Part shown: one piece after another, positions 3,001-64,000 of the stretch
Layout of the letters: each line of letters opens with the position of its first letter
Numbering within the stretch: the stretch's first letter is position 1
Virus record (IMG/VR): IMGVR_UViG_3300032226_000551
Location: 1 to 64,000 of that record
Length of the DNA: 64,000 bases
Origin: a virus
Taxonomy: Duplodnaviria; Caudoviricetes
Strand: one strand, 5' to 3'
Program-made: the position numbers and the translations under genes
The notes under the pieces: generated by a model
What the model was told of the DNA's origin: nothing
Seen by the model: only the letters and a program-made list of their open reading frames with translations
The model's database searches: none

Positions 3001-3543
3001 TGAAAATAAAACTATATTATCATCACCTAAAAGATAATTAAATTTTTGTGTATCAGAAGGTGGAGATATTCTAGATGAAAAAAACAAATTATTTGAACCA
3101 TCATAGGTTAATACATTACCATCATTCGATTCTAGTGATACTGTATCATCATCAAAAACTATTTTTATATTATCTAAATATGAATAGTTTTTAGTATATG
3201 ATTTATATAGTATAGTTTTGTTTTGATGTGAAGATAATGTTATTACAAAGGAATCAAAATCGGAAGTTTTAAATGGTGTTTCTATTTTAGTAAGATCGGT
3301 TAAATTTTGAGGAGAACCTTTATCTTCAAAAAAATCTTCAGACAACAAAAGATCGGTTAAAACCATTCCGGTTTTTTTGTTTATTTTTATATCTTTTGAA
3401 TTTTGTAAAAAATTGTAAACGTTTGCTTTAAAACCATTATCAAAAACAAATGATGTGTTTTTTACATTTATTTTTTCTCCCATTAAATTAAAATTTATAG
3501 GATACCAATATATGTCTGATATTTTTGTTGAATAAAGTTCCAT
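1..3543 (-). CDS. Large baseplate/tail-associated protein (>1181 aa, 3' end outside window) with LamG-like, beta-propeller-like and Calx-beta-like regions
   Basis: Not in ORF track (no stop in window). Hand translation from ATG 3543: MELYSTKISDIYWYP...HLTVSLWLNVQDW...GWHNFVFNFNS...GDVGQIVMYNKSLTQGQIAELY (LamG-like)...IKKITPAHTDLYKINW...NVSNGTSVPYTIT; TAAGTA box 6 nt upstream. Confidence 0.8.
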   Translation of the reverse strand, partial: MELYSTKISDIYWYPINFNLMGEKINVKNTSFVFDNGFKANVYNFLQNSKDIKINKKTGMVLTDLLLSEDFFEDKGSPQNLTDLTKIETPFKTSDFDSFVITLSSHQNKTILYKSYTKNYSYLDNIKIVFDDDTVSLESNDGNVLTYDGSNNLFFSSRISPPSDTQKFNYLLGDDNIVLFSYGSNYSKAVTINTNRILSLTNVSYNLNAVLESDKILNFISYERKNLETNSIKNSYFCRYLSSPLSSQKNIVPSQESLLENYKQNFLSFFPYQNPVFNDIDGYVDYNLQIHGLKNYQTPEYNYSRGFDYVEDYKPIRREYNNIFSGTNQENGLENVYLGFTANTYLKKFETDKNTVFYFPPTTERISVHDSGLIDDGAYYGEMPYVSDRIYTRQISYEELTPNVAQPPSMPRLDGTWLCTWLSGNPMGQKKWMDRYFNSAYYTTDTALGATDLLYNEKLNPDVDFEVWDEPSSLIFEPGGQYIYFRSGQENSRTFLKYLSSDFYNLLGSKILDISNFTSSPLIDNTPYLNSGFIVGNTDSNLKGDYMTFDGKNHIVFPAKNVLLEKNHLTVSLWLNVQDWGNINGDQIIGNYYDSGFGFINEASLTSPIFTVIESTSGNIFNLNYKLSHLDNIKIPDVVNSENCIVQRLMDFSYWIIDSYNRILRKYSIEGKIQKTVYIKDYTTDITYIDQVEIDSQENLYLYNIEKKNLVKLNSSGDFVFSKILPNQYKRIEIGLNDEERYSYGDSSCIDNDNSLWEVIGGNLYKDQQIYANLGPIQQITCDANNNLWIVHLKDKITKFNITEDKFEFTKSIGKNVLIDDDCFEYNGQFRFLNFIKTPKISKVCVETTDKTEDLAILIDDSDKIVYLINSEGSLVSRLSLYGLVTVDLSTVNDGLKFKALGDFSSYQFLRKFGSLEKNLSWKFKVGTANGKEGRLLKLTYDVKDLPPGWHNFVFNFNSTEGTAKYYIDTYLVATENFDKAKYQIQYDYKSSILVGASNIKNTTLNDLIQIDDAYKLLGDVGQIVMYNKSLTQGQIAELYFASPLSVDKGPLKWNIPIGERNYVEEIKHWFQMQLPTNKSKYFNINIHNLKADDSVKKLIEDSIRSNIKKITPAHTDLYKINWLDSNREINNYSDYQNVCTPPPTYQLTSNKTSVNEPDSVIFTLTTTNVSNGTSVPYTIT

Positions 3544-3552
3544 TTATAATAC

Positions 3553-4275
3553 TTAACTGTAAAAATCAGTTTCTAATAATTTATCAACTATAACATCTGT
3601 TGTTATAGATTGTAGTGTAGCATATGGCAATAAACAATTTATATTATCTATTACAAGATTTTGATCCTTTTTTAAAATGGTGCTTATTATACCAAATTCA
3701 TCTTTATTTCCACGCAATATAAAAGATACATTAAAACATCTAGTATCATTATTATAGGATATTTTACAAGGTTCTAAAATAGGTTTTTTAGTAAGATTGG
3801 AAAAATTACAATATGTTAAATTTATATCATATGAAAATTTTGATGAATATGTATTTTTTAATATATCAAATTGTTTTATCGTAACATTTATTTTTACATT
3901 AGTAGAAGTCCAGTATTTTATTTGATTATCAACAACATATATTTTTTTATTCACTTCATCCAACCAATAATCTGGAAATTTATTACCATTTGCTGTTATG
4001 ATTAATCTATCATCATTATTTGATGGTATTAAGATGTTATTATTTTTTGTTAATTTATCAAAAATATATCCTGTTTCGGTTTCTAAAAAAATAACATCAT
4101 AGAAAAAATCAAATCTTTTTATTTGATTGTTAATCAATTCTGAATAAAAATCAGTATTAACTGTACTATATTTCAAATTTAATGCTGATAATGCATCAGT
4201 TGATGGTAATATTTTACCAGATGGTGTTCTTAACCACAATTCTCCATCTACATCATTTTCTAATATCTTATTCAT
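3553..4275 (-). CDS. Hypothetical protein, tail/baseplate block
   Basis: 240 aa ORF packed between structural genes; TAAATA box upstream. Confidence 0.7.
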   Translation of the reverse strand: MNKILENDVDGELWLRTPSGKILPSTDALSALNLKYSTVNTDFYSELINNQIKRFDFFYDVIFLETETGYIFDKLTKNNNILIPSNNDDRLIITANGNKFPDYWLDEVNKKIYVVDNQIKYWTSTNVKINVTIKQFDILKNTYSSKFSYDINLTYCNFSNLTKKPILEPCKISYNNDTRCFNVSFILRGNKDEFGIISTILKKDQNLVIDNINCLLPYATLQSITTDVIVDKLLETDFYS

Positions 4276-18361: not shown

Positions 18362-20167
18362 TTAAAAGTCTGCTATCTTTATAGAATTATTTTTTTCTAC
18401 TATTTCTATTCTATCTAAGATATTTTCAATATTGTTAAACAATCCAAATTTAAAATTTTCTAATGTTATATTTTGGGTAAAAACATTAACATCGGTTTCT
18501 GGATATGTGGGATTCCATATAACAAAAGATAAACCATCTATAGTCAAATTTATATCCGATCTATATGTTTTAATATTATCAACACCATCGATATTGATTA
18601 TACTATTTGCTATTTGATATACATCTATTATTTGTCCTAATTTAGATGTTTGTCTTGAGAAGTTGTCATCAAATATTTTTTTAATTTCTAGTGCTATAGC
18701 AGAAGATGCTCTTCTTGTATTTAATGATTTATTGATTAATATTTTGGTTTGATTTATATCCGATAATACTACTGCATCATCATTTGATTTTTTTAAATAA
18801 AAATCCATATAAACATAAACTGGATCTATTGGAATAATTTGAGTTGTTATTGTTTTAACTTCTTTTACTCCTTCTAAAATAAATTCCTTTTGAGATGGTG
18901 TTAAATATTCTTGTCCTTCGTTTGATGGAACCATGTAAACATATAGATTATTAAAATTACAAGAATTTGCAAATTTAATCTGATTGTATAATATTTTTGT
19001 ATCTTCTTGTGGATTTTTTAATCCATTATCGTATAGGTATTTTATATGTTGTCTTAAATATTCATCATTGTTTAAGAGTTTAATATCCGATATTAAATTT
19101 TTATAATTACTTTTAATAAAAACCTCATAATCTTTTGCTGTTACTAATCTATTTTGTGATTTAAAACTCTGTGGTGCATTTTTTCTAATATCATCAACAG
19201 TCTCTTCTTGTGAATAGGCGGTAGATGGATAATCATTGCTTATTTTTACGTTTAAACATCCATTTGCATTTAAATAATTTCCAGAGTCTATTCCAGTATC
19301 AGATAAAATTTCGGTAAATTGTATAGAATTGTATAAAATCGTAGATATTTTATTCATAGCACCTACACCAACATTTTGTATAGTTGGATTTATTTTTAAA
19401 TAATATATCGCTACGATATCACCCTTTTCTAATTTTTTTCCGTTTATATTATCACCAAAAGTTATTTCGTATCTTTTATTTTCATTATATCTAACTTCAT
19501 ATACGGTATCCGTAGCTTTGTTTAAAAATAAATCTTGTACTCTTGTCCACTTTTGCCACGTATCAGTATTATATTTTTTTACATATACATCAATATTAAA
19601 ATTATCTATTGTAATTTTAGAATCAACAGAAAGATATATTTTTTCATTATCTATTCCACCCGATTTATATAATGGATATTCTTGAAAAAAACCTTCTCTT
19701 AATGTTATAGTATTATCCAATATTGTTATATCTTCACTTATAGAATCTGTTAGTTTTGTAAAAGATACATCTTCATTAAAAGAATATGTTGTACTACCAA
19801 CATTTATATAACTATACTTTGGTATAATATAATTACCTTTTGGAATATTTGTTATAGTTAGTTTAATAGGAATAGTTTGCCCCTGCGGTCCTACTGGTTT
19901 ATAATTTAAAAGCTTGACAATTCTATTCATGTTCTCGTATAATTGAGATTCTGAGAACATACTTTCTGATGATGTTTTATTTAAATAAAATAATAAATTA
20001 CTAAAAGAATATGATATAACATCTATAATAGCTGATATATTAGAACCTTGATAATTTTGATCGGTAAAAACTTTACCTCTATTTAATCTATCGATTATAA
20101 TATCTCTTAAACTAGTGCCATCAAATGCCACATATGAATTTTTGTTGAAAATAAAACTCTCGTCCAT
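18362..20167 (-). CDS. gp6: Baseplate wedge subunit (T4 gp6-like)
   Basis: FTDQNYQGSNISAIIDVISY, YEITFGDNINGKKL, ETVDDIRKNAP...QNRLVTAKDY. Confidence 0.92.
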   Translation of the reverse strand: MDESFIFNKNSYVAFDGTSLRDIIIDRLNRGKVFTDQNYQGSNISAIIDVISYSFSNLLFYLNKTSSESMFSESQLYENMNRIVKLLNYKPVGPQGQTIPIKLTITNIPKGNYIIPKYSYINVGSTTYSFNEDVSFTKLTDSISEDITILDNTITLREGFFQEYPLYKSGGIDNEKIYLSVDSKITIDNFNIDVYVKKYNTDTWQKWTRVQDLFLNKATDTVYEVRYNENKRYEITFGDNINGKKLEKGDIVAIYYLKINPTIQNVGVGAMNKISTILYNSIQFTEILSDTGIDSGNYLNANGCLNVKISNDYPSTAYSQEETVDDIRKNAPQSFKSQNRLVTAKDYEVFIKSNYKNLISDIKLLNNDEYLRQHIKYLYDNGLKNPQEDTKILYNQIKFANSCNFNNLYVYMVPSNEGQEYLTPSQKEFILEGVKEVKTITTQIIPIDPVYVYMDFYLKKSNDDAVVLSDINQTKILINKSLNTRRASSAIALEIKKIFDDNFSRQTSKLGQIIDVYQIANSIINIDGVDNIKTYRSDINLTIDGLSFVIWNPTYPETDVNVFTQNITLENFKFGLFNNIENILDRIEIVEKNNSIKIADF

Positions 20168-20212: not shown

Positions 20213-20220
20213 TATAAATA
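20213..20220 (+). promoter_or_regulatory. T4-type late promoter TATAAATA
   Basis: Exact T4 late consensus, 6 nt before ATG 20227; gp55 is encoded in the window. Confidence 0.75.
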
Positions 20221-20226
20221 TATAAA

Positions 20227-20589
20227 ATGAAATTTAAAGATATTTTTGAAAAAGCAGCAAAACAATATTTAACCGAACAACAGGTTCAGGATATGATGAA
20301 TGATGCTTCTAATGAAACTGAACAAGTTCAACAACCCGAAGTAAATCCAGAAATGCAATCGGAATTACCTACAGAAGAAACTATTGATTTGAACGAGGAA
20401 AAATATAAAGCCTTGCTTTTGATGGTTCAAAAAGCATTAATTCTAGCATATAAAGATGATACGAATAAAAGAAATGATTTGGCAGACATTGAATCCAAAA
20501 TAGAAACTTCTCCCAAAGAAGCAGAATCTTCATTGCAATCATTATTAGACAGTAACGTTTCAAATTTTCCAGAAAATAGCTTTAATTAA
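20227..20589 (+). CDS. Acidic hypothetical protein, candidate head internal protein
   Basis: 120 aa; MKFKDIFEKAAKQYLTE N-terminus; late box. Confidence 0.7.
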   Translation: MKFKDIFEKAAKQYLTEQQVQDMMNDASNETEQVQQPEVNPEMQSELPTEETIDLNEEKYKALLLMVQKALILAYKDDTNKRNDLADIESKIETSPKEAESSLQSLLDSNVSNFPENSFN

Positions 20590-37017: not shown

Positions 37018-37950
37018 ATGACAAAATACAATTCATTGTGGGTTGAGAAATATCGACCTTCGAAAATTACCGACATTATTTTGAATGACGGCAATAGGGA
37101 GTTTTTCAATAATTTGGATGAAAAGACTCCACATATATTTCTTTGGGGTGCACCGGGTGCAGGGAAAACCACCCTTGCTAAGATAATCGTAAACGACATA
37201 CTAAAATGTCAGTATCTCTACATCAATGCATCAGACGAAAACGGTGTCGATACTATCAGAAACAAGGTAATCTCTTTCTCTCAAACAAAATCATTGGATG
37301 GTAATATAAAAGTTATTATCTTAGATGAATCTGATGGATTAACTAATGAAAGCCAAAGAGTTCTTAGAAACGTCATGGAAGAATATTCCGAAAACGTTCG
37401 ATTCATTTTAACAGCAAATTATGCAAATAAAATAATCGAACCTATACAATCAAGATGTTTGGTTTTTAACATAAAACCAAATTTAGAAGAATCTTACAAT
37501 AGATGTTTATATATTTTACAAAATGAAAATATAAAAATCGATGATGATACGAAAACTCTATTAAAACCTTTTATTGAAAAGAGAAACTTGGATTTAAGAA
37601 GGTGTATAAATGATCTACAGAGATATTCTGTCGATGGGAAATTGAATTTAAATTCTTCTTTCTCTAATAGTAACATTCATGCACAACATATCATAAAATC
37701 ACTTTTATTAAAGGAATCTTGCTGGAATATAAGAAAATATGTTCTTTCTAATGAAATTAATTTCGATTATAATTATGGTAATCTCATGAAAGAGATGTTT
37801 GAAATATTATTCTCATCTAAAATACAAGGTAATATGAAGAAAATGATCCTATTAGAATTAGGAGAGCATATGTACCGAGATGTTTCGGTATTAGATCATG
37901 AAATTAACTTCTTTTGCTGTATTCTAGCTATAGAAAAAATTATGACTTAA
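37018..37950 (+). CDS. gp44: Clamp loader large subunit (T4 gp44/RFC-like)
   Basis: LWVEKYRP, GAPGAGKTT, INASDENG, ILDESD, IQSRC. Confidence 0.95.
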   Translation: MTKYNSLWVEKYRPSKITDIILNDGNREFFNNLDEKTPHIFLWGAPGAGKTTLAKIIVNDILKCQYLYINASDENGVDTIRNKVISFSQTKSLDGNIKVIILDESDGLTNESQRVLRNVMEEYSENVRFILTANYANKIIEPIQSRCLVFNIKPNLEESYNRCLYILQNENIKIDDDTKTLLKPFIEKRNLDLRRCINDLQRYSVDGKLNLNSSFSNSNIHAQHIIKSLLLKESCWNIRKYVLSNEINFDYNYGNLMKEMFEILFSSKIQGNMKKMILLELGEHMYRDVSVLDHEINFFCCILAIEKIMT

Positions 37951-38464
37951 TTTGTACGTTTTTAGTGGGTAGAGAATTATCTTCTGGTTGATTTCCCAAA
38001 TTTATATTAATTTGTACTACCTCTGGTTTAGTACCAATTGGTTTTTCGTATTTATTTGGAACACCTTGTACTGGTGGTAAATTAACACCGAAATCTAGAA
38101 CTTCTATAACCTCAAAGTCACCGGGTACGGTAAACTCTGACATTTCCGTTGGGGTATGAACCGATCTAGGGTCGCATTTTAAAATTAAGAACACATCCCC
38201 CGAACCTTCGTTTGTGTTTGCATCTTTTACGTTTTGTTCGGAACCACCACCAACAACTCTTTTAATAAAAAAGAAATAGTCTTGATCAACCATTGCTTTT
38301 AACCATTCGCAAAAAGCACTGTGTCCACCATAATGCTTTTTAAAGTATGGTGAATTAAAAAAACCACTTTTTATCTTAACTGGTGATCCTTCTCTGAATC
38401 CACCATTAGAAAAATGTGTAAAAGCAGTTTCGAGCAATGTATCAAATCTATTAAATTTTTTCAT
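37940..38464 (-). CDS. Hypothetical late protein
   Basis: MKKFNRFDTLLE; TAAATA upstream; alternative start 38470. Confidence 0.7.
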   Translation of the reverse strand: MKKFNRFDTLLETAFTHFSNGGFREGSPVKIKSGFFNSPYFKKHYGGHSAFCEWLKAMVDQDYFFFIKRVVGGGSEQNVKDANTNEGSGDVFLILKCDPRSVHTPTEMSEFTVPGDFEVIEVLDFGVNLPPVQGVPNKYEKPIGTKPEVVQININLGNQPEDNSLPTKNVQIKS

Positions 38465-38497
38465 ATCCATATATATTTACATAAGTATTTACCTAAT

Positions 38498-38998
38498 ATG
38501 GCTACAGTTCGACTAGATAATTTAATAAAACCTAGAATTAGAAACTCTAAAGAAACCAATTTAAAAAACGAGTATATTGAAAAACCAGCATTATACACTG
38601 ATTTAACATTGGATATGAGTGTATCCAAATCAATCGGTTCTGGTTTAAATGTAATTGATGCGGGTGATATTGCAGTTTCTAATGATGACGAGGCTATAAA
38701 AAATTCATTATACAATATCTTTTCTACTAAAAAGGGTCAAAAAATACTAAATCCTGAATTTGGTGCATCTTTGGATCAATATCTATTTGAAAATGTAAAT
38801 TCGTTTGTTGGAAATAGTTTGGGAAAAAATATATTCGATACTATTAAAAATTATGAACCGAGAATAAGGGTCCATAAAGTAGATGTGTATCCTCTTCCAG
38901 ATTTAAACCAATATACCGTAAAAATTTATTATTATAAGGTAAACGGAGAAGGAGCATTGAGTTTAAAATTAGATAGAAGTGGAATTATCATCGAATAA
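38498..38998 (+). CDS. gp25: Baseplate wedge/sheath initiator (T4 gp25-like)
   Basis: AIKNSLYNIFSTKKGQKILNPEFG...YLFE...YEPRI; start follows TAAGTA 38482-38487. Confidence 0.9.
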   Translation: MATVRLDNLIKPRIRNSKETNLKNEYIEKPALYTDLTLDMSVSKSIGSGLNVIDAGDIAVSNDDEAIKNSLYNIFSTKKGQKILNPEFGASLDQYLFENVNSFVGNSLGKNIFDTIKNYEPRIRVHKVDVYPLPDLNQYTVKIYYYKVNGEGALSLKLDRSGIIIE

Positions 38999-39009
38999 TA
39001 AGTATTGTT

Positions 39010-39447
39010 ATGTGGAAGAATATAATAGACATAGCCAAAACAGCAAAATCCATGTTAAGCAGTGGCGAAATACCTCCAAACACACCCGAAAACTATAAAG
39101 AGGATTTGAGCAAGGTAAATTTTTTAGCATCTAAAAAATTTTATGTGGTTTTTTGCTCTGTTATAATATTAAGTTTTTTCTATGCGGCGAGTATAATTGT
39201 TTTATTTTTAACCGCAGCACATCCTTCTTTAACAACAGCTTTTGTTAGTATTTTTAGCGAAACAATAAAAATATTAGCAGTAATTATAGCAAGTTATTTG
39301 GGTGTACAAACTGTTTTAGATTACAAAATGAATTCAAATTCTACTAATGAATATAAAACAAGCAATGAATATTCTAAAAAACAAATTGATGTAAACAAAG
39401 TTACCTATATTGAAACCAATTCAAAGGAAGATGATTATGAACTCTAA
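39010..39447 (+). CDS. Two-TM membrane protein, putative holin
   Basis: SKKF followed by two hydrophobic segments and a charged tail; overlaps lysozyme gene. Confidence 0.6.
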   Translation: MWKNIIDIAKTAKSMLSSGEIPPNTPENYKEDLSKVNFLASKKFYVVFCSVIILSFFYAASIIVLFLTAAHPSLTTAFVSIFSETIKILAVIIASYLGVQTVLDYKMNSNSTNEYKTSNEYSKKQIDVNKVTYIETNSKEDDYEL

Positions 39448-40054
39448 AAAACCATCTGAAAAAGCCTTAAATTTATTGTTTAAATACGAAGTAGGGGGAG
39501 GAAAGAATTATTATGATAAATATTTGTCCCACTTCACATGGCCCGGTGGGGCTTCTGGACCAACCATCGGTATCGGTATCGATTGCGCTTATTATACTCA
39601 AACAGAATTGCAAAAAATATTTGAGTTTTTACCAAGTGAACAAATAGAATTGATAAAAAAATCTAGTGGTAAAACCGGACAAGATGGGAAAGAGTATACA
39701 AAAACATTAAGACAATCCGGTATAGTTGTAGAATGGGAAGAAGCAGTTGAAATATTCAACAGTCTAACATGGAAAAAATTTTCAACATTGGCAGAAAAAA
39801 CATTCCCATCGCTAGATCAACTCTGTCCTGATGCATATGGTGCTATAGTGTCCCTCGTATTCAATCGAGGAACGAGCCTAAACGGTCCTTCTAGGCTCGA
39901 AATGAGAAAAATCAAGGAATTGATACCTTCCAAGGATTATAATTCAATAGCGAACGAAATTAGAAAAATGAAAAGGCTCTGGATGGGTAAAAATATGGCG
40001 GGACTATTAGAAAGAAGAGAATCGGAAGCTAAATTAGTAGAAAGTTGTGCTTAA
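39437..40054 (+). CDS. Pesticin-C/T4-lysozyme-like muramidase (putative endolysin)
   Basis: YEVGGG, GASGPTIGIGID, AIVSLVFNRG, GLLERRESEA; start 39431 or 39437. Confidence 0.8.
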   Translation: MNSKKPSEKALNLLFKYEVGGGKNYYDKYLSHFTWPGGASGPTIGIGIDCAYYTQTELQKIFEFLPSEQIELIKKSSGKTGQDGKEYTKTLRQSGIVVEWEEAVEIFNSLTWKKFSTLAEKTFPSLDQLCPDAYGAIVSLVFNRGTSLNGPSRLEMRKIKELIPSKDYNSIANEIRKMKRLWMGKNMAGLLERRESEAKLVESCA

Positions 40055-40055
40055 T

Positions 40056-40307
40056 ATGGAACTTTCTGAGGTATACGCAAAAAATGTTAAAAAAACAAGT
40101 GTCAGCAACTTATGTGTTGGTGGAAATATGCCAATTATTGAAAGAGATCCAAATTTGATTAAATTGGAAAGAGAGGTTTTTGCTAAAATGTTAGAAATAT
40201 CGCCACCAGAAGAAACCCCGCCAAGCAAAACCTCTAATTTGAGTATTAAAAATGTATCATTTGAGGATGCACTAAAAGAATTAGTAAGTATTAGAAATAA
40301 TTCTTAA
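40056..40307 (+). CDS. Hypothetical protein
   Basis: ATG just after lysozyme stop. Confidence 0.6.
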   Translation: MELSEVYAKNVKKTSVSNLCVGGNMPIIERDPNLIKLEREVFAKMLEISPPEETPPSKTSNLSIKNVSFEDALKELVSIRNNS

Positions 40308-40358
40308 ATATTCAGAAGTTTTCTTAAACATTATTAATTTATTCTCTCTATAAATTCA

Positions 40359-40386
40359 ATTATAATACAGATAAAAAAAATGTCAA
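40359..40386 (-). promoter_or_regulatory. Consensus sigma70 promoter TTGACA-16-TATAAT, antisense to lysis genes
   Basis: Minus strand reads TTGACA ttttttttatctgtat TATAAT. Confidence 0.75.
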
Positions 40387-40409
40387 CTGGTTTTTTTAAA
40401 ATTCCCAAA

Positions 40410-40907
40410 CTACTTATTCATATTTTTTAATTTGTCAAGTACTTTTAATAAAAATTCTTCATCATCTCCAGTAGGATTAAGACAAGGAAAGTCTAAAAAT
40501 TTTCCAGATGTATTTAAAAATAATTTTTTATCAGTTTTTAATTCTATAAAATTCGGTAAATTCTTTTTACAAATTTTTTTACATATTTTTAATATTTTTA
40601 ATGGATCAGTAAAAAAAGAATGCCATTCTCTTGTTTCATTTGAATTAAAAAGAAATGATATTATTTTACAATTGTTATCATTTGCTATTTTTATAAAATT
40701 ATCTAATTCCGATTGTAATTTGGTTTGTATTAATTCTTTTATTAAAATATTACTACAATTAACCATTCCATTTTTTAAAAGATCCCAATCATAAACAAAA
40801 TCTAATACATGAACCGATAATTCATCTATATAGTTTGAAATATCAAAAATTAATATATTTTCTTTTAAATAATATAAAAAGTATTTTTTAACTTTTTTTT
40901 CGTTCAC
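40410..40907 (-). CDS. Hypothetical protein
   Basis: 165 aa; last gene of a coupled minus-strand run. Confidence 0.65.
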   Translation of the reverse strand: MNEKKVKKYFLYYLKENILIFDISNYIDELSVHVLDFVYDWDLLKNGMVNCSNILIKELIQTKLQSELDNFIKIANDNNCKIISFLFNSNETREWHSFFTDPLKILKICKKICKKNLPNFIELKTDKKLFLNTSGKFLDFPCLNPTGDDEEFLLKVLDKLKNMNK

Positions 40908-41430
40908 AACTATCTATAATAGCATCAATTAAAATTTCTTCCACTATTTCGTTAGGTAAAAATGTGTTTGCTCTATTTATAGTTTTGCTGATTTCTTGAT
41001 ATTGCTCAATCAGTCGTTTTTTTATGTTGTTTGCTTCTACATATTGTTCTTTATTCAAAGAACTAAAAGTAGGTTTACTTTGTAATTCAAAAGCTTCTAA
41101 TAGAGGTTCTCCTGAATTTGAAATTATTTCTGATAATCTTTTATAAAATCTACTTAAAGGAGTGAATTGTTTTGATGTAGAAAAACCTTTAAGTTTTTCA
41201 TACAAATAAGATAAAACACATGACTTTTTAGTTTGTTCATGAACTCTATTTAAAAATTCTGGTGATTTAACATGATTTTTACCATAAGGATTGTATATAC
41301 AACCGCTTCCCACATATTTTGAATTACAATATATGCATCTATCAGGAGAATCCATATGAACATGTGTATTGGTGGGAGAAAAAATACATCCCTTTCCATA
41401 AGATTTAGAATCGCAATAAATACATTTCAT
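40888..41430 (-). CDS. Protein with two tandem CxxC-x8-C...H Zn-finger-like repeats
   Basis: CIYCDSKSYGKGCIFSPTNTHVH and CIYCNSKYVGSGCIYNPYGKNHV. Confidence 0.7.
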   Translation of the reverse strand: MKCIYCDSKSYGKGCIFSPTNTHVHMDSPDRCIYCNSKYVGSGCIYNPYGKNHVKSPEFLNRVHEQTKKSCVLSYLYEKLKGFSTSKQFTPLSRFYKRLSEIISNSGEPLLEAFELQSKPTFSSLNKEQYVEANNIKKRLIEQYQEISKTINRANTFLPNEIVEEILIDAIIDSCERKKS

Positions 41431-41431
41431 A

Positions 41432-41872
41432 TTATATAATTACTTTATTTTTAAAATTATCCAACTCTTGTTTAGGTGCATTTCCGATTCTTACATTTAT
41501 TATACCGTTGTAAAAATCATTTCTTAAAAGAACATCATTTTCAATTTGTTCTTTTATTTCATAATAAGCCAATGCCCACTTTGAACCACATGTTCTTATA
41601 ATTTCAAATTTAAAATTTTCTTTTCCATACTTTTTAATATCATCATTCAATTCATTAGATGAACTAGTATATGTTTTCCAATCTGATTCTTTAAAACATA
41701 TACGTTTTCTGGTTTTACCTTTCAGTGGTTGTCTTTTAATTTTTGAAATACATTGTTTCTTACCTATATATTTTTTATTTGTTAAATTGTTTGTTATCAA
41801 ATATAGAAATCCAAAGGTTTCTTCATTTATATTAACATTTTCTCGTAAAATCCAATGCCCTATATCATTCAT
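41432..41872 (-). CDS. GIY-YIG endonuclease (EndoII/DenA-like)
   Basis: GFLYLITN...KYIGKK, ESDWKTYTSSS, FYNGII. Confidence 0.88.
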   Translation of the reverse strand: MNDIGHWILRENVNINEETFGFLYLITNNLTNKKYIGKKQCISKIKRQPLKGKTRKRICFKESDWKTYTSSSNELNDDIKKYGKENFKFEIIRTCGSKWALAYYEIKEQIENDVLLRNDFYNGIINVRIGNAPKQELDNFKNKVII

Positions 41873-42099
41873 TTATTTTTATTTTTCTTATTTTTCTTAG
41901 TTAAAAGTTCAGGAAATTTTCTTTTTATAACTTTTTTACCTAACAATTTAGGAGTTCTCATGTCTTTAGTAGCATAATTATCATTATTTTTAATATCAGA
42001 TGGTGGATTATATAAAGGTTCTAATGATTGACCCAATACACCGCTAACTGTATTATTTTCTAATATTTTAATTATAGTTTGTTGAAATTTATTAAACAT
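41869..42099 (-). CDS. Small basic hypothetical protein
   Basis: MFNKFQQTIIKILEN; coupled to GIY-YIG gene. Confidence 0.65.
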   Translation of the reverse strand: MFNKFQQTIIKILENNTVSGVLGQSLEPLYNPPSDIKNNDNYATKDMRTPKLLGKKVIKRKFPELLTKKNKKNKNK

Positions 42100-42122
42100 A
42101 ATATATAATTTAATTAATACTT

Positions 42123-42521
42123 ATGGATTTTTTTGAAAAATATAGATTAGAAATAAACGAAGATGTTAAAATCGATCAATTAAATTTATTGGAGCGTGAA
42201 ATGCAGCATCCAGCCATACGTCACAAATGGGTTTCTAGGTTAATTCAACATAAAAAAAACAAAACTGAATTAGAAAGAAAGAAAAAAACTTTAAAACAAG
42301 AAGTATTAAAAAATATAACAGAAAAAGGAATTCCAACCGGAATTCCTAAAACTGCTATAGACAATAAAGTAGAATCATCAGAAGTGATTCAAAAAATAAA
42401 TCAAGAAATAGAAGATATTACGTTGTTAATTGATTATTTAGAAAGAGTGGAAAAGGTATTTTCGTCTATGAGTTATGATTTTGGGTCTATTAACAATACT
42501 ATTAAAATGGAAATGACATGA
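42123..42521 (+). CDS. uvsY: Recombination mediator UvsY-like
   Basis: EDVKIDQLNL...P..RHKW...IDYLE; upstream of uvsW. Confidence 0.8.
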   Translation: MDFFEKYRLEINEDVKIDQLNLLEREMQHPAIRHKWVSRLIQHKKNKTELERKKKTLKQEVLKNITEKGIPTGIPKTAIDNKVESSEVIQKINQEIEDITLLIDYLERVEKVFSSMSYDFGSINNTIKMEMT

Positions 42522-42537
42522 TTTTTTTATTAAAAAA

Positions 42538-42545
42538 TATAAATA
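42538..42545 (+). promoter_or_regulatory. Late promoter TATAAATA for HNH cassette
   Basis: Exact consensus just after uvsY stop. Confidence 0.7.
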
Positions 42546-42549
42546 TAAA

Positions 42550-42625
42550 GAATAACAAGAGTAAGAATATTTTGGCTGAAAACAAAATATTCGACTGGAA
42601 TAATACAGTTTGTCCTCTTGTATTC
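42550..42625 (+). ncRNA. Predicted three-way-junction RNA leader of HNH gene
   Basis: GAATAACAAGAG/CTCTTGTATTC encloses GAATATTTTG/CAAAATATTC and ACTG/CAGT stems. Confidence 0.55.
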
Positions 42626-42634
42626 GGAATAATT

Positions 42635-43276
42635 ATGAAAAATTTAAAAGAAAACAATCAAATTTTATCTTTGGATGAAATAAAAAAACAGAAAAAGAAA
42701 GAATATTTTCAAAAAAACAAAAAAATAATAAACGAAAAGAAAAAACAATATCGTATTAAAAATAGAGATTTACATTTACAGCAATGTAAAAAATATAGAG
42801 AAAAAAACAAAGAACGTTTAAAAGAATATCATAAAAATTATAGAAAAATACATGGTGTATCTATGTATTTGAGAGAACAAAAAAATAAAAAAGAAAACTC
42901 AGATAGAGTTAAAAAATATTATAAAAAATATGTAAAAAAAAGAATTTTAAACGATGTAAATTTTAAAATTTCTTTAACCTTGAGAATATCTATAAACAAG
43001 GCATTACATAATAAAAAAATAATAAAGTCAAAAAAAACATTAGATTTATTGGGATGTTCTTTACAGGTTTTTAAAAAACATATAGAAACACAGTTTAAAG
43101 ACGGTATGTCTTGGGATAATCATGGTAAATTTGGTTGGCACATAGATCATATTAAACCAGTATCTTCATTTAATCTTATAAATGAAGATGAACAAAAAAA
43201 ATGTTTTAATTATAAAAATATGCAATCTTTATGGTGGAACGAAAACCTATCTAAAGGAAACAAAAATATATGGTAA
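42635..43276 (+). mobile_element. Free-standing HNH homing endonuclease inserted between uvsY and uvsW
   Basis: Lys-rich helical repeats, LLGCS...QFKDGMSWDNHG...WHIDHIKP...ENLSKGNK. Confidence 0.85.
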
Positions 43277-55790: not shown

Positions 55791-55818
55791 TTGAAATTCC
55801 ATAAGTTTCGACTATAAT
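55791..55818 (+). promoter_or_regulatory. Early promoter TTGAAA-16-TATAAT inside a 15-bp hairpin
   Basis: Intergenic; -10 ends 8 nt before ATG 55827. Confidence 0.75.
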
Positions 55819-55826
55819 ATATCTAT

Positions 55827-56306
55827 ATGTTTGTAAGCAATGATGAAGAAACTTTCTTTTTCTCTTTTTTAAAAGATGATCTAACAGTTTTAGAATATGG
55901 TTCTGGAAAGTCAACCACTCAAATAAGCCAAAAAGTTAAACACTTGGTTTCTGTTGAACATCAGAAACAGTGGTTTGAAGAAGTTATTAAAGCAATACCT
56001 AAAAATTGTTCTTTAATGTTAAAAGAACCTTCAGAATTGTATATAGAAGGAGGTCAGGATGGATCTTATTCTCAGTTTAAAGATTACATAGAAGCACCCA
56101 TAGAACAAGGCCCTTATGATATTATCTTTATAGATGGAAGAGCGCGAGTAGGTTGCGCCTCTGTCTGCCATCTAATGTCTCATGAAAATACACACATTTT
56201 TATTCACGATTTTCATAGGCCAGAATATCAAGAAGCTTTAAAATATCTTGAATTAAAACAAAGAGTAGGTGAAATGGCTCTTTTTAAAATTAAAAAAAAT
56301 GATTAA
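55827..56306 (+). CDS. SAM-dependent methyltransferase
   Basis: VLEYGSGKST, SVEH, IFIDGRAR, IHD. Confidence 0.85.
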   Translation: MFVSNDEETFFFSFLKDDLTVLEYGSGKSTTQISQKVKHLVSVEHQKQWFEEVIKAIPKNCSLMLKEPSELYIEGGQDGSYSQFKDYIEAPIEQGPYDIIFIDGRARVGCASVCHLMSHENTHIFIHDFHRPEYQEALKYLELKQRVGEMALFKIKKND

Positions 56307-63629: not shown

Positions 63630-63657
63630 TTGACATTTTAATACATCGTATTAAAAT
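63630..63657 (+). promoter_or_regulatory. Early promoter TTGACA-16-TAAAAT with perfect 10-bp inverted repeat
   Basis: ATTTTAATAC-ATC-GTATTAAAAT; 9 nt before ATG 63667. Confidence 0.75.
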
Positions 63658-63666
63658 ATATAAGAT

Positions 63667-64000
63667 ATGAGTAATACAACAGAAACAACAAACAATACAA
63701 CGACACCAATTATCTTTTTAGATACTGTAGGAAGAACCATCATGGCACTTCCTGATGCATCTAGTGATGATAGTGTTTTAACTGTAAAAAATCCGGTAGT
63801 TATCATGGTAGGTGGAGATAACAGCGGAAAAATGTCGGTACAACTATTCCCACTATTCTTCAGAGAGTTTCTAGCCGATAAGAATGCAGATGTGACATTC
63901 TCTTATAAGAAGGATTCCATCACATTGAGCAATATCGAAGCGATTGATTTTAGATTGCAAGCTCAGTATTCACAAATGTTCTCAAAGACAAATTCCTTTG
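63667..64000 (+). CDS. Partial hypothetical protein, possibly Sm-like fold (3' end outside window)
   Basis: Not in ORF track; MSNTTETT...IIFLDTVGRTI...LTVKNPVVI...QLFPLFF...QYSQMF open to window edge. Confidence 0.7.
   Translation, partial: MSNTTETTNNTTTPIIFLDTVGRTIMALPDASSDDSVLTVKNPVVIMVGGDNSGKMSVQLFPLFFREFLADKNADVTFSYKKDSITLSNIEAIDFRLQAQYSQMFSKTNSF

Follow-up and report, generated by a model that had tools for sequence, protein, structure and literature searches.

A conserved consensus promoter without a gene of its own, facing the lysis genes of an uncultured T4-like phage

Promoters set against genes of late development are familiar from phage lambda, where paQ and the promoter of oop RNA, constitutive or early antisense promoters, lie in, or next to, a gene in control of late development and of when lysis occurs. 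Early antisense RNAs inside late genes have also been observed by RNA-seq in Pseudomonas myoviruses, and one of them, which runs over the endolysin gene, was proposed (though not shown) to delay lysis (2017, PMC5563952). Here we describe a minus-strand promoter of the host type in a stretch of 64,000 nucleotides (nt), positions 1 to 64,000 of the IMG/VR virus record IMGVR_UViG_3300032226_000551, which we call the window. The promoter has no gene of its own and is directed antisense into the genes for an 83-amino-acid (aa) protein (p83), a lysozyme-family endolysin, a holin-like protein and the baseplate wedge protein gp25. As in the Pseudomonas phages, an early transcript would be antisense to late genes including that of the endolysin, and a delay of lysis can be proposed. 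The two cases differ in that the transcript described here is predicted from the sequence, whereas those of the Pseudomonas phages were seen by RNA-seq, and in that the promoter here has a perfect host consensus, lies at a convergent gene boundary and is conserved across a large uncultured clade. Lambda, for its part, is a temperate siphovirus whose short and defined antisense RNAs, unlike the transcript predicted here, have experimentally shown effects. That early RNAs can run antisense over late or lysis genes is a concept known before from other phages, and the present locus is a well-conserved further case of it; we regard the finding as solid in its anatomy and ordinary in its biology.

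Two sets of T4 elements also invite comparison. With the promoters of early and homing-endonuclease genes in T4 (Edgell, Gibb and Belfort 2010, PMC2988022), the promoter described here shares the use of host RNA polymerase, the T4-like genome and a position beside a SegE-type GIY-YIG nuclease gene. The endonuclease-specific promoters of T4 are middle or late, never early (PMC2988022). Unlike them, the promoter here is linked to the gene m165, whose stop codon it follows, and it persists in two lineages of relatives (L007 and L043) that have no GIY-YIG gene; for this reason, we rejected the idea that it is carried by a free-standing homing-endonuclease gene. The promoter is also present in a group of relatives (L030/L031/L036) that lacks the 180-aa gene m180. 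Together with m165, the GIY-YIG gene and a 76-aa gene (m76), m180 forms a minus-strand cassette that is found beside uvsY-uvsW in about 60 related contigs.

The second set is formed by the T4 replication origins oriF(uvsY), oriG(34) and oriE (Kreuzer and Brister 2010, PMC3016281), of which oriE consists of an early promoter with iterons, while oriF and oriG combine a promoter with a DNA unwinding element. The T4 record has the order 26-25-[oriF]-uvsY ... uvsW-segE, with the 5′ end of uvsY as the site of oriF, adjacent to gene 25, and with segE beside uvsW. The locus in the window resembles these origins in its gene 25/uvsY/uvsW neighbourhood and in having a promoter with AT-rich DNA downstream, AT-richness being a property of every gap between genes here. 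It is unlike oriF in that oriF uses the uvsY promoter itself, the counterpart of which is here a separate promoter at 42082, and it has no MotA box, iterons or skew shift.

The window covers the first 64 kb of a contig of 114,347 bp, which CheckV rates as about 54% complete and which has a GC content of 29%. The phage is a T4-like myovirus that has no close relative in culture; the major capsid protein shares about 34% identity with its counterparts in cyanophage T4-likes, and no more than about this value with any cultured phage. A TTGACA-16-TATAAT promoter on the minus strand, singled out by the first-pass annotation as the best match that it had found, is indeed the best sigma-70 match of the whole contig (40386-40359; Table 1). 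Between 35 and 46 kb it is the sole 12/12 match, and in the whole contig it is the single 12/12 match with a spacer of 16-17 nt. It sits in a 102-nt gap between the TAA stop of the plus-strand gene p83 (40307) and the TAG stop of the minus-strand gene m165 (40410). The A-tract and CCAG directly upstream of the −35 hexamer (AAAAAAACCAG) are a likeness, as we take it, of a proximal UP subsite. Perfect hexamer pairs with spacers of 15-19 nt occur three times in the window, compared with a mean of 0.40 in shuffled sequences, of which 1 in 100 reached three; the other two pairs, with spacers of 15 and 18 nt, both lie within long open reading frames (ORFs), and only the pair at 40386-40359 is intergenic. 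Taken from the window alone, this evidence against chance is modest. It is because the promoter is conserved in relatives that we do not regard it as a product of chance.

This conservation was evaluated in about 100 related loci from virus contigs, gathered by searches with the lysozyme, m165 and UvsW proteins. The scan required A2 and T6 in the −10 hexamer, and the chance background consisted of 1266 windows drawn from the same loci. In a first-round set of 15 lineage representatives, in which m165 identity ranges from 98% down to about 25%, a promoter matching at least 10/12 consensus positions lies within 140 nt of the m165 stop in all 15, and 11 of the 15 have at least 11/12. Among the background windows, 6.8% reach 10/12, 1.2% reach 11/12 and none reaches 12/12. 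Every lineage of a 42-row clade in the UvsW tree carries TTGAC and a TAnnAT −10 hexamer right after the m165 stop or overlapping it, in a region that is otherwise unalignable. TTGAC is invariant throughout this clade as well as in L007/L043. The −10 hexamer is invariably TATAAT in the clade to which the window belongs, and reads TAAGAT, TAAAAT, TACAAT or (in one lineage) CATAAT in others. The spacer measures 15-17 nt in the relatives (15 in L002 and L003), and its sequence varies freely. Within the window clade, the hexamers stay constant while the spacer carries substitutions and a 1-nt deletion, the upstream gap has indels of 11-28 nt and the downstream sequence has diverged. The hexamers are more conserved than the neutral sequence around them, as one would ask of a promoter. 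Judged by this comparison, the promoter is under purifying selection, and the view of it as a genuine promoter of the pre-late class, used by host RNA polymerase and maintained by selection, is supported.

The A-tract is kept, as AAAAA(A)C-C/TAG, in the window, L004, L026 and L028 groups. These groups also share the purine-rich beginning of the predicted transcript (TTTATAGAGAGAATAAATTAA), which is not kept in L029 or L061; the transcript start is purine-rich in the window clade, in contrast to the sister clades, where it is U-rich. Several members of the sister clades (L034 at 3509-3530, L069, L081, L125, L091 and L106) have a small hairpin (loop GTC) and then a T-run just past the −10 hexamer at the predicted start, e.g. 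AGGATGTCATCCTTTTT. Changes in its stem preserve pairing, and the window clade carries TTTATAGAGAGAA at this place. The hairpin could be a terminator of the cassette or an operator. Among GenBank phages, we found no DNA relative of the promoter region except for short endonuclease matches and no homologue of m165, and no further copy of this region turned up in a search for paralogues inside the contig. A further TTGACA at 40439-40434, at the end of m165, was considered as a second, tandem promoter and rejected: with the best −10 it scores 9/12 and lacks A2 and T6. It is conserved as codons (L-D-K) of m165.

Promoters of the same host-type class are found at real genes of the contig, e.g. as TTGAAA-16-TATAAT or TTGACA-16-TAAAAT, with the ATG 6-9 nt past the −10 hexamer. 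The late class is distinct and consists of the motif TATAAATA, perfect copies of which precede late-type genes at 20220, 24330 and 109729; a gene for gp55 is nearby. Arrangements of the form TTGAnA-16-TAnnAT, with the −10 hexamer ending 6-9 nt before the ATG, recur at many genes (55791-55829, 63630-63669, 59420, 60767, 20627 and 22077 in the window, 110802-110764 in the rest of the contig), and the late motifs stand 3-7 nt ahead of the ATG. From its sequence, the gene design of the contig looks largely leaderless, without Shine-Dalgarno sequences. The uvsY gene has a host-type promoter of its own, which is kept in most related lineages and whose −35 hexamer overlaps the first codons of the divergent gene m76. 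Another perfect pair, TTGACA-18-TATAAT on the plus strand (19914-19943), lies within the 5′ part of the minus-strand gene 18362-20167 and is directed at the main strand switch (20167/20227), where the cumulative GC skew is minimal. Back to back with the promoter studied here, the plus strand carries TATAAATT, which matches 7/8 of the T4-type late motif; in the L004, L026 and L028 groups the match to TATAAATA is complete. No plus-strand gene follows it, and the position of this late-like site opposite the promoter may be a coincidence.

What would be transcribed from the promoter holds no recognizable gene. The 16-aa ORF that had been reported downstream exists as described, with its ATG 27 nt past the −10 hexamer as opposed to 6-9 nt at real genes of the contig, and no Shine-Dalgarno sequence was found at a working distance from it. 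L002, L003, L017 and L018, with neighbouring proteins at 89-100% identity, have ATA in place of its ATG, and in the next group (L004) the sequence is unrelated, which argues against the small peptide that had been considered. Over its initial 500 nt, the putative transcript contains no ATG-initiated ORF of at least 25 aa. Mini-ORFs at a conserved AATGT in the sister clades were rejected as candidates, since their ATG lies just 3-5 nt past the −10 hexamer and the peptides (4-21 aa) are unconserved. The earlier suggestion of a structured small RNA fared no better. RNAalifold gave a consensus of −3.9 kcal/mol with no covarying pairs, and hence no conserved structure, for the first 250 nt; single-sequence folds of the putative transcript (z-score −0.41) and of the gap were no better than those of shuffled sequences; a search of 38-43 kb against Rfam at a permissive E value returned a lone plastid intron row at 20.8 bits, compared with a gathering score of 55.2; and ARAGORN found no tRNA or tmRNA.

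On the minus strand, no terminator-like site is predicted downstream until 36932. The antisense geometry described by the first-pass annotation, about 1.8 kb against the gene at 40056, lysozyme, holin and gp25, was borne out: from about 40352 to the start of gp25 at 38498 the distance is 1.85 kb, and the stop codon of p83 lies 45 nt from the predicted transcription start. The word holin applies by position only. Nucleotides 201-400 of the putative transcript contain 47 C and 20 G and are untranslated; this C-rich stretch makes Rho termination within the p83 or lysozyme gene plausible. The 1.85 kb would for this reason be an upper bound for the length of the transcript.

We tentatively propose, giving the idea a little less than an even chance, that this is a pre-late promoter whose transcript is non-coding and runs antisense into the lysis genes and gp25; anatomy and conservation of the sequence are the grounds for this proposal. 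Unmodified host RNA polymerase would fire at the promoter before the late phase and transcribe leftward on the minus strand from about 40352. The RNA, having neither a translatable gene nor an intrinsic terminator, would be non-coding and antisense to the 3′ end of p83 and then to the lysozyme gene, and Rho termination favoured by the C-rich untranslated stretch 200-400 nt downstream might limit its reach toward the holin-like gene and gp25. The late lysis genes would in this way be held silent until the gp55-dependent late phase, both by interference of convergent transcription, i.e. collision with transcription of the plus strand, and by pairing of the antisense RNA with early sense RNA, for instance read-through from the clamp-loader gp44 gene. 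The block would lapse once early transcription stops. Pre-late timing is suggested by the promoter class, which is of the host type here as opposed to the TATAAATA late motifs elsewhere. Activity and timing of the promoter, the length of the transcript, its effect on lysis and hence a role in preventing premature lysis are what we infer from this arrangement. If true, this would be a clean and evolutionarily old case of a consensus early promoter set against the end of the lysis genes; it would act as a simple antisense timer, in a T4-like lineage that is large, uncultured and very rich in AT and in which most genes begin a few bases from their promoters.

The convergent layout, with the promoter facing the 3′ end of a module of p83, lysozyme and transmembrane protein genes, is found in the window clade, in a clade comprising L097, L062, L064, L076 and L089, and in the basal L007/L043. 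One clade (L034/G001, L037/G003, L039, L065, L069, L091, L099, L106, L108, L125 and others) has this module of three genes in the flipped orientation. There, 1-3 lineage-specific genes, including a 260-aa calcineurin-like phosphoesterase, a 222-aa gene and a pair of 64 and 196 aa, lie between promoter and module, and everything downstream of the promoter is in sense. G001 and G004 differ in just the lysis module: 10810-12080 of L045 (G001) and 9485-10700 of L047 (G004), corresponding to 39010-40307 of the window, are inverted as a unit. The UvsW tree (62 rows, with midpoint rooting as the sole basis of its root) requires one change of orientation, and the flipped lineages form one clade with an SH-aLRT of 92. 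In smaller trees of m165 and UvsW, L007/L043 are the deepest split. Under midpoint rooting, the convergent state, in which the promoter is an orphan, would be older than the flipped one.

A sister clade of 16 rows, L128 and L120 have no good promoter, and in most of them m165 is directly followed by co-oriented genes, one of which is a weak homologue of the window gene at 20227. Lineages in which the lysis module abuts the cassette have the promoter, and lineages with other genes after m165 lack it, with the convergent L120 and L121 as exceptions. This association between promoter and lysis module is suggestive only, because there are few independent contrasts. The first-pass annotation had also counted it as a refutation if relatives showed a gene at this place that was simply deleted here. 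This is in part the case: co-oriented genes do follow in the derived clade and in some of the outgroups without the promoter, but the gene-less convergent layout appears old and widespread and is not a recent deletion. With about 60 related contigs, one clean three-gene inversion and lineages with and without the promoter, the comparative set amounts to a natural experiment on the antisense geometry.

Several points weigh against an antisense role in lysis timing. The main weakness is that the promoter has long been kept in the derived clade in which the lysis module is flipped into sense, and its maintenance can therefore do without the antisense geometry; after the flip, it has either found a second use in driving the inserted genes or has a function that does not depend on orientation. 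L120 and L121, moreover, are convergent and lack a good promoter. Since there is no terminator between the m165 stop and the −35 hexamer, transcripts of the cassette probably read through the same gap, which would make a dedicated antisense promoter partly redundant. Use of the sigma-70 consensus by the host is an assumption as well, and the 145-aa protein is called a holin by virtue of its position.

Rather than acting on the lysis genes, the promoter could mark the boundary of the conserved cassette and restart pre-late transcription for whatever follows, be it accessory genes or the next block, with the antisense RNA in the window as a tolerated by-product after rearrangement. We consider this unlikely, though it is in keeping with the derived clade, in which lineage-specific genes come after the promoter, ahead of the lysis module in sense, with outgroups in which m165 is directly followed by co-oriented genes, and with T4, where insertions of homing endonucleases bring or embed promoters and can yield antisense transcripts (PMC2988022). 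However, perfect hexamers are present in at least three old convergent clades where there is nothing to drive, and because the neighbouring non-coding sequence decays, their persistence is hard to explain without a function in the convergent layout. The distance to the next gene in the co-oriented clade, 75-130 nt, also departs from the usual 6-9 nt to the ATG, and the retention of the promoter without the GIY-YIG gene, as in L007 and L043, speaks against a boundary function, too. Another candidate for the target is the next co-oriented gene, m176, a minus-strand ORF of 176 aa (38470-37940) that would be reached via a 1.9-kb leader. It is the nearest gene on the same strand, and a real one, with better conservation in the L004 group (92% identity) than its neighbours (76-78%). 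It is, however, restricted to the window, L004 and L026 groups, without a copy in the whole records behind L034, L040, L038 and L030, and because most lineages that keep the promoter lack this gene, it cannot explain the wider conservation. The gene has late-type motifs of its own just upstream, GATAAATA or GGTAAATA, plus TGTAAATA 3 nt before its ATG, and the leader would be untranslated and would contain the C-rich stretch prone to Rho termination. We therefore hold m176 to be a very improbable target.

The first-pass annotation had further suggested a promoter-primed replication origin, at which a persistent R-loop in the AT-rich DNA downstream would prime leading-strand synthesis, as at T4 oriF, oriG and oriE. 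A strong promoter without a gene is indeed followed by AT-rich DNA, with a GC content of 8-20% in positions +1 to +60 compared with 25-29% for the loci (17% and 28% in the window), it is kept whatever the orientation of the downstream genes, and it lies within the gp25-uvsY interval, the home of oriF in T4. Some relatives of the flipped clade have tandem repeats in the AT-rich spacer between promoter and next gene (L037 at 3538-3627, three copies of 27 nt; L033 at 3562-3623, two to three copies of 18 nt), and the adjacent m165 shows a weak match to a FEN/RNase H-like fold. All the same, we see only a slim chance for an origin. Every intergenic gap is AT-rich in this genome of 29% GC, the transcript start is purine-rich here and U-rich in sister clades, such that no R-loop-favouring composition is conserved, and neither the window between 40290 and 40420 nor most relatives have repeats or iterons. 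What corresponds directly to the promoter of oriF is that of uvsY at 42082, which is conserved in its own right, and m165 lacks a conserved acidic cluster, its Z score of 6 being within the range of chance. GC skew, proposed earlier as a check of the origin idea, gives no signal at the site: GC and AT skew track the coding strand only, with a cumulative minimum at about 20 kb. Among T4 origins, a skew shift is not universal (PMC3016281). An origin conserved across a large uncultured T4-like clade, perhaps working with m165, would explain why the promoter is retained in either gene orientation, and to this wider version we likewise give little credence. Lying 21 nt from the predicted start, the 16-aa ORF could in principle make the locus the source of a micro-peptide, or else a discrete structured small RNA might be produced; with the loss of the ATG in near-identical relatives, the missing Shine-Dalgarno sequence, the lack of a conserved structure or a terminator after it and the absence of an Rfam match near threshold, we find both hardly credible.

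The genes around the promoter are listed in Table 1.

Table 1. Features of the promoter locus and its neighbourhood (positions refer to the window).
Feature	Position	Strand	Remarks
−35 hexamer TTGACA	40386-40381	minus	6/6 match to sigma-70 consensus
Spacer, 16 nt	40365-40380	minus	within 17 ± 1 bp
−10 hexamer TATAAT	40364-40359	minus	6/6, with A2 and T6
A-tract plus CCAG, AAAAAAACCAG	40387-40397	minus	UP-element-like; directly upstream of −35
Predicted transcription start	40350-40354, about 40352	minus	about 7 nt past −10, predicted from promoter geometry
Transcript start TTTATAGAGAGAATAAATTAA	40334-40354	minus	purine-rich; kept in window, L004, L026 and L028 groups
TATAAATT	40349-40356	plus	7/8 of T4-type late motif TATAAATA; back to back with promoter
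16-aa ORF	40331-40281	minus	ATG 27 nt past −10, 21 nt from predicted start; not a gene
Clamp-loader gp44 gene	37018-37950	plus	
176-aa gene (m176)	37940-38470	minus	wedged between gp44 and gp25; no family matched
gp25 baseplate wedge	38498-38998	plus	likely start MATVRL; PF04965, E 4e-12; phrog_261
145-aa protein	39010-39447	plus	two hydrophobic helices, holin-like by position; sub-threshold CD20-like match only
Lysozyme-family endolysin	39410-40054	plus	PF00959, 29.4 bits (cut-off 22.3); PHROG endolysin families
83-aa gene (p83)	40056-40307	plus	first antisense target by its 3′ end; no family matched
165-aa gene (m165)	40410-40907	minus	promoter after its stop
180-aa gene (m180)	40888-41430	minus	cassette member
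SegE-type GIY-YIG nuclease	41432-41872	minus	PF19835, E 5e-32
76-aa gene (m76)	41869-42099	minus	cassette member
uvsY promoter TTGAAA-16-TATAAT	42082-42109	plus	ahead of uvsY at 42123
uvsY	42123-42521	plus	PF11056

The gene p83 is a conserved ORF in all lineages, with 61% identity in L004 and 35-57% in the others. Pfam and PHROGs returned nothing for m176, p83, m165, m76 or the genes that follow m165 in the outgroups. For m165, the predicted structural model has a pLDDT of 88.7, and its best matches are weak (T4 RNase H, Z 6.0; T5 exonuclease, Z 5.4; Pol I 5′-nuclease, Z 5.1). A Foldseek search against the PDB found nothing for this protein, a wide structural search gave only FEN/RNase H-like matches with Z of 6 or below, and the ESM Atlas offered nothing of use on m165 or m180.

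In nearly the whole clade, the GIY-YIG gene has an identity of 63-85% and keeps a constant position in the cassette beside uvsY-uvsW. This is unusually stable for a free-standing homing endonuclease, and the gene may have been domesticated. Two alleles of uvsY, about 50% identical, segregate in otherwise close relatives (the window as compared with L003, L004, L005, L013 and L016); in L013 and L016, uvsY is 100% identical to that of the window, while the neighbouring genes are about 80% identical. This pattern points to local mosaic recombination beside nuclease genes. To the right of uvsY, and divergent from the cassette, are a variably present 252-aa gene and then a UvsW-like helicase. The 252-aa gene (42518-43276, plus strand), for which no Pfam family was found at an E value of 0.001, is present in L002, L013, L015 and L016 and absent from L003, L005, L007 and L008, and a homologue of it adjoins the p83 gene in L029. 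Upstream of the cassette, within the coding region of uvsY, the minus strand carries a terminator-like hairpin of 9 bp with a T-run (42347-42326).

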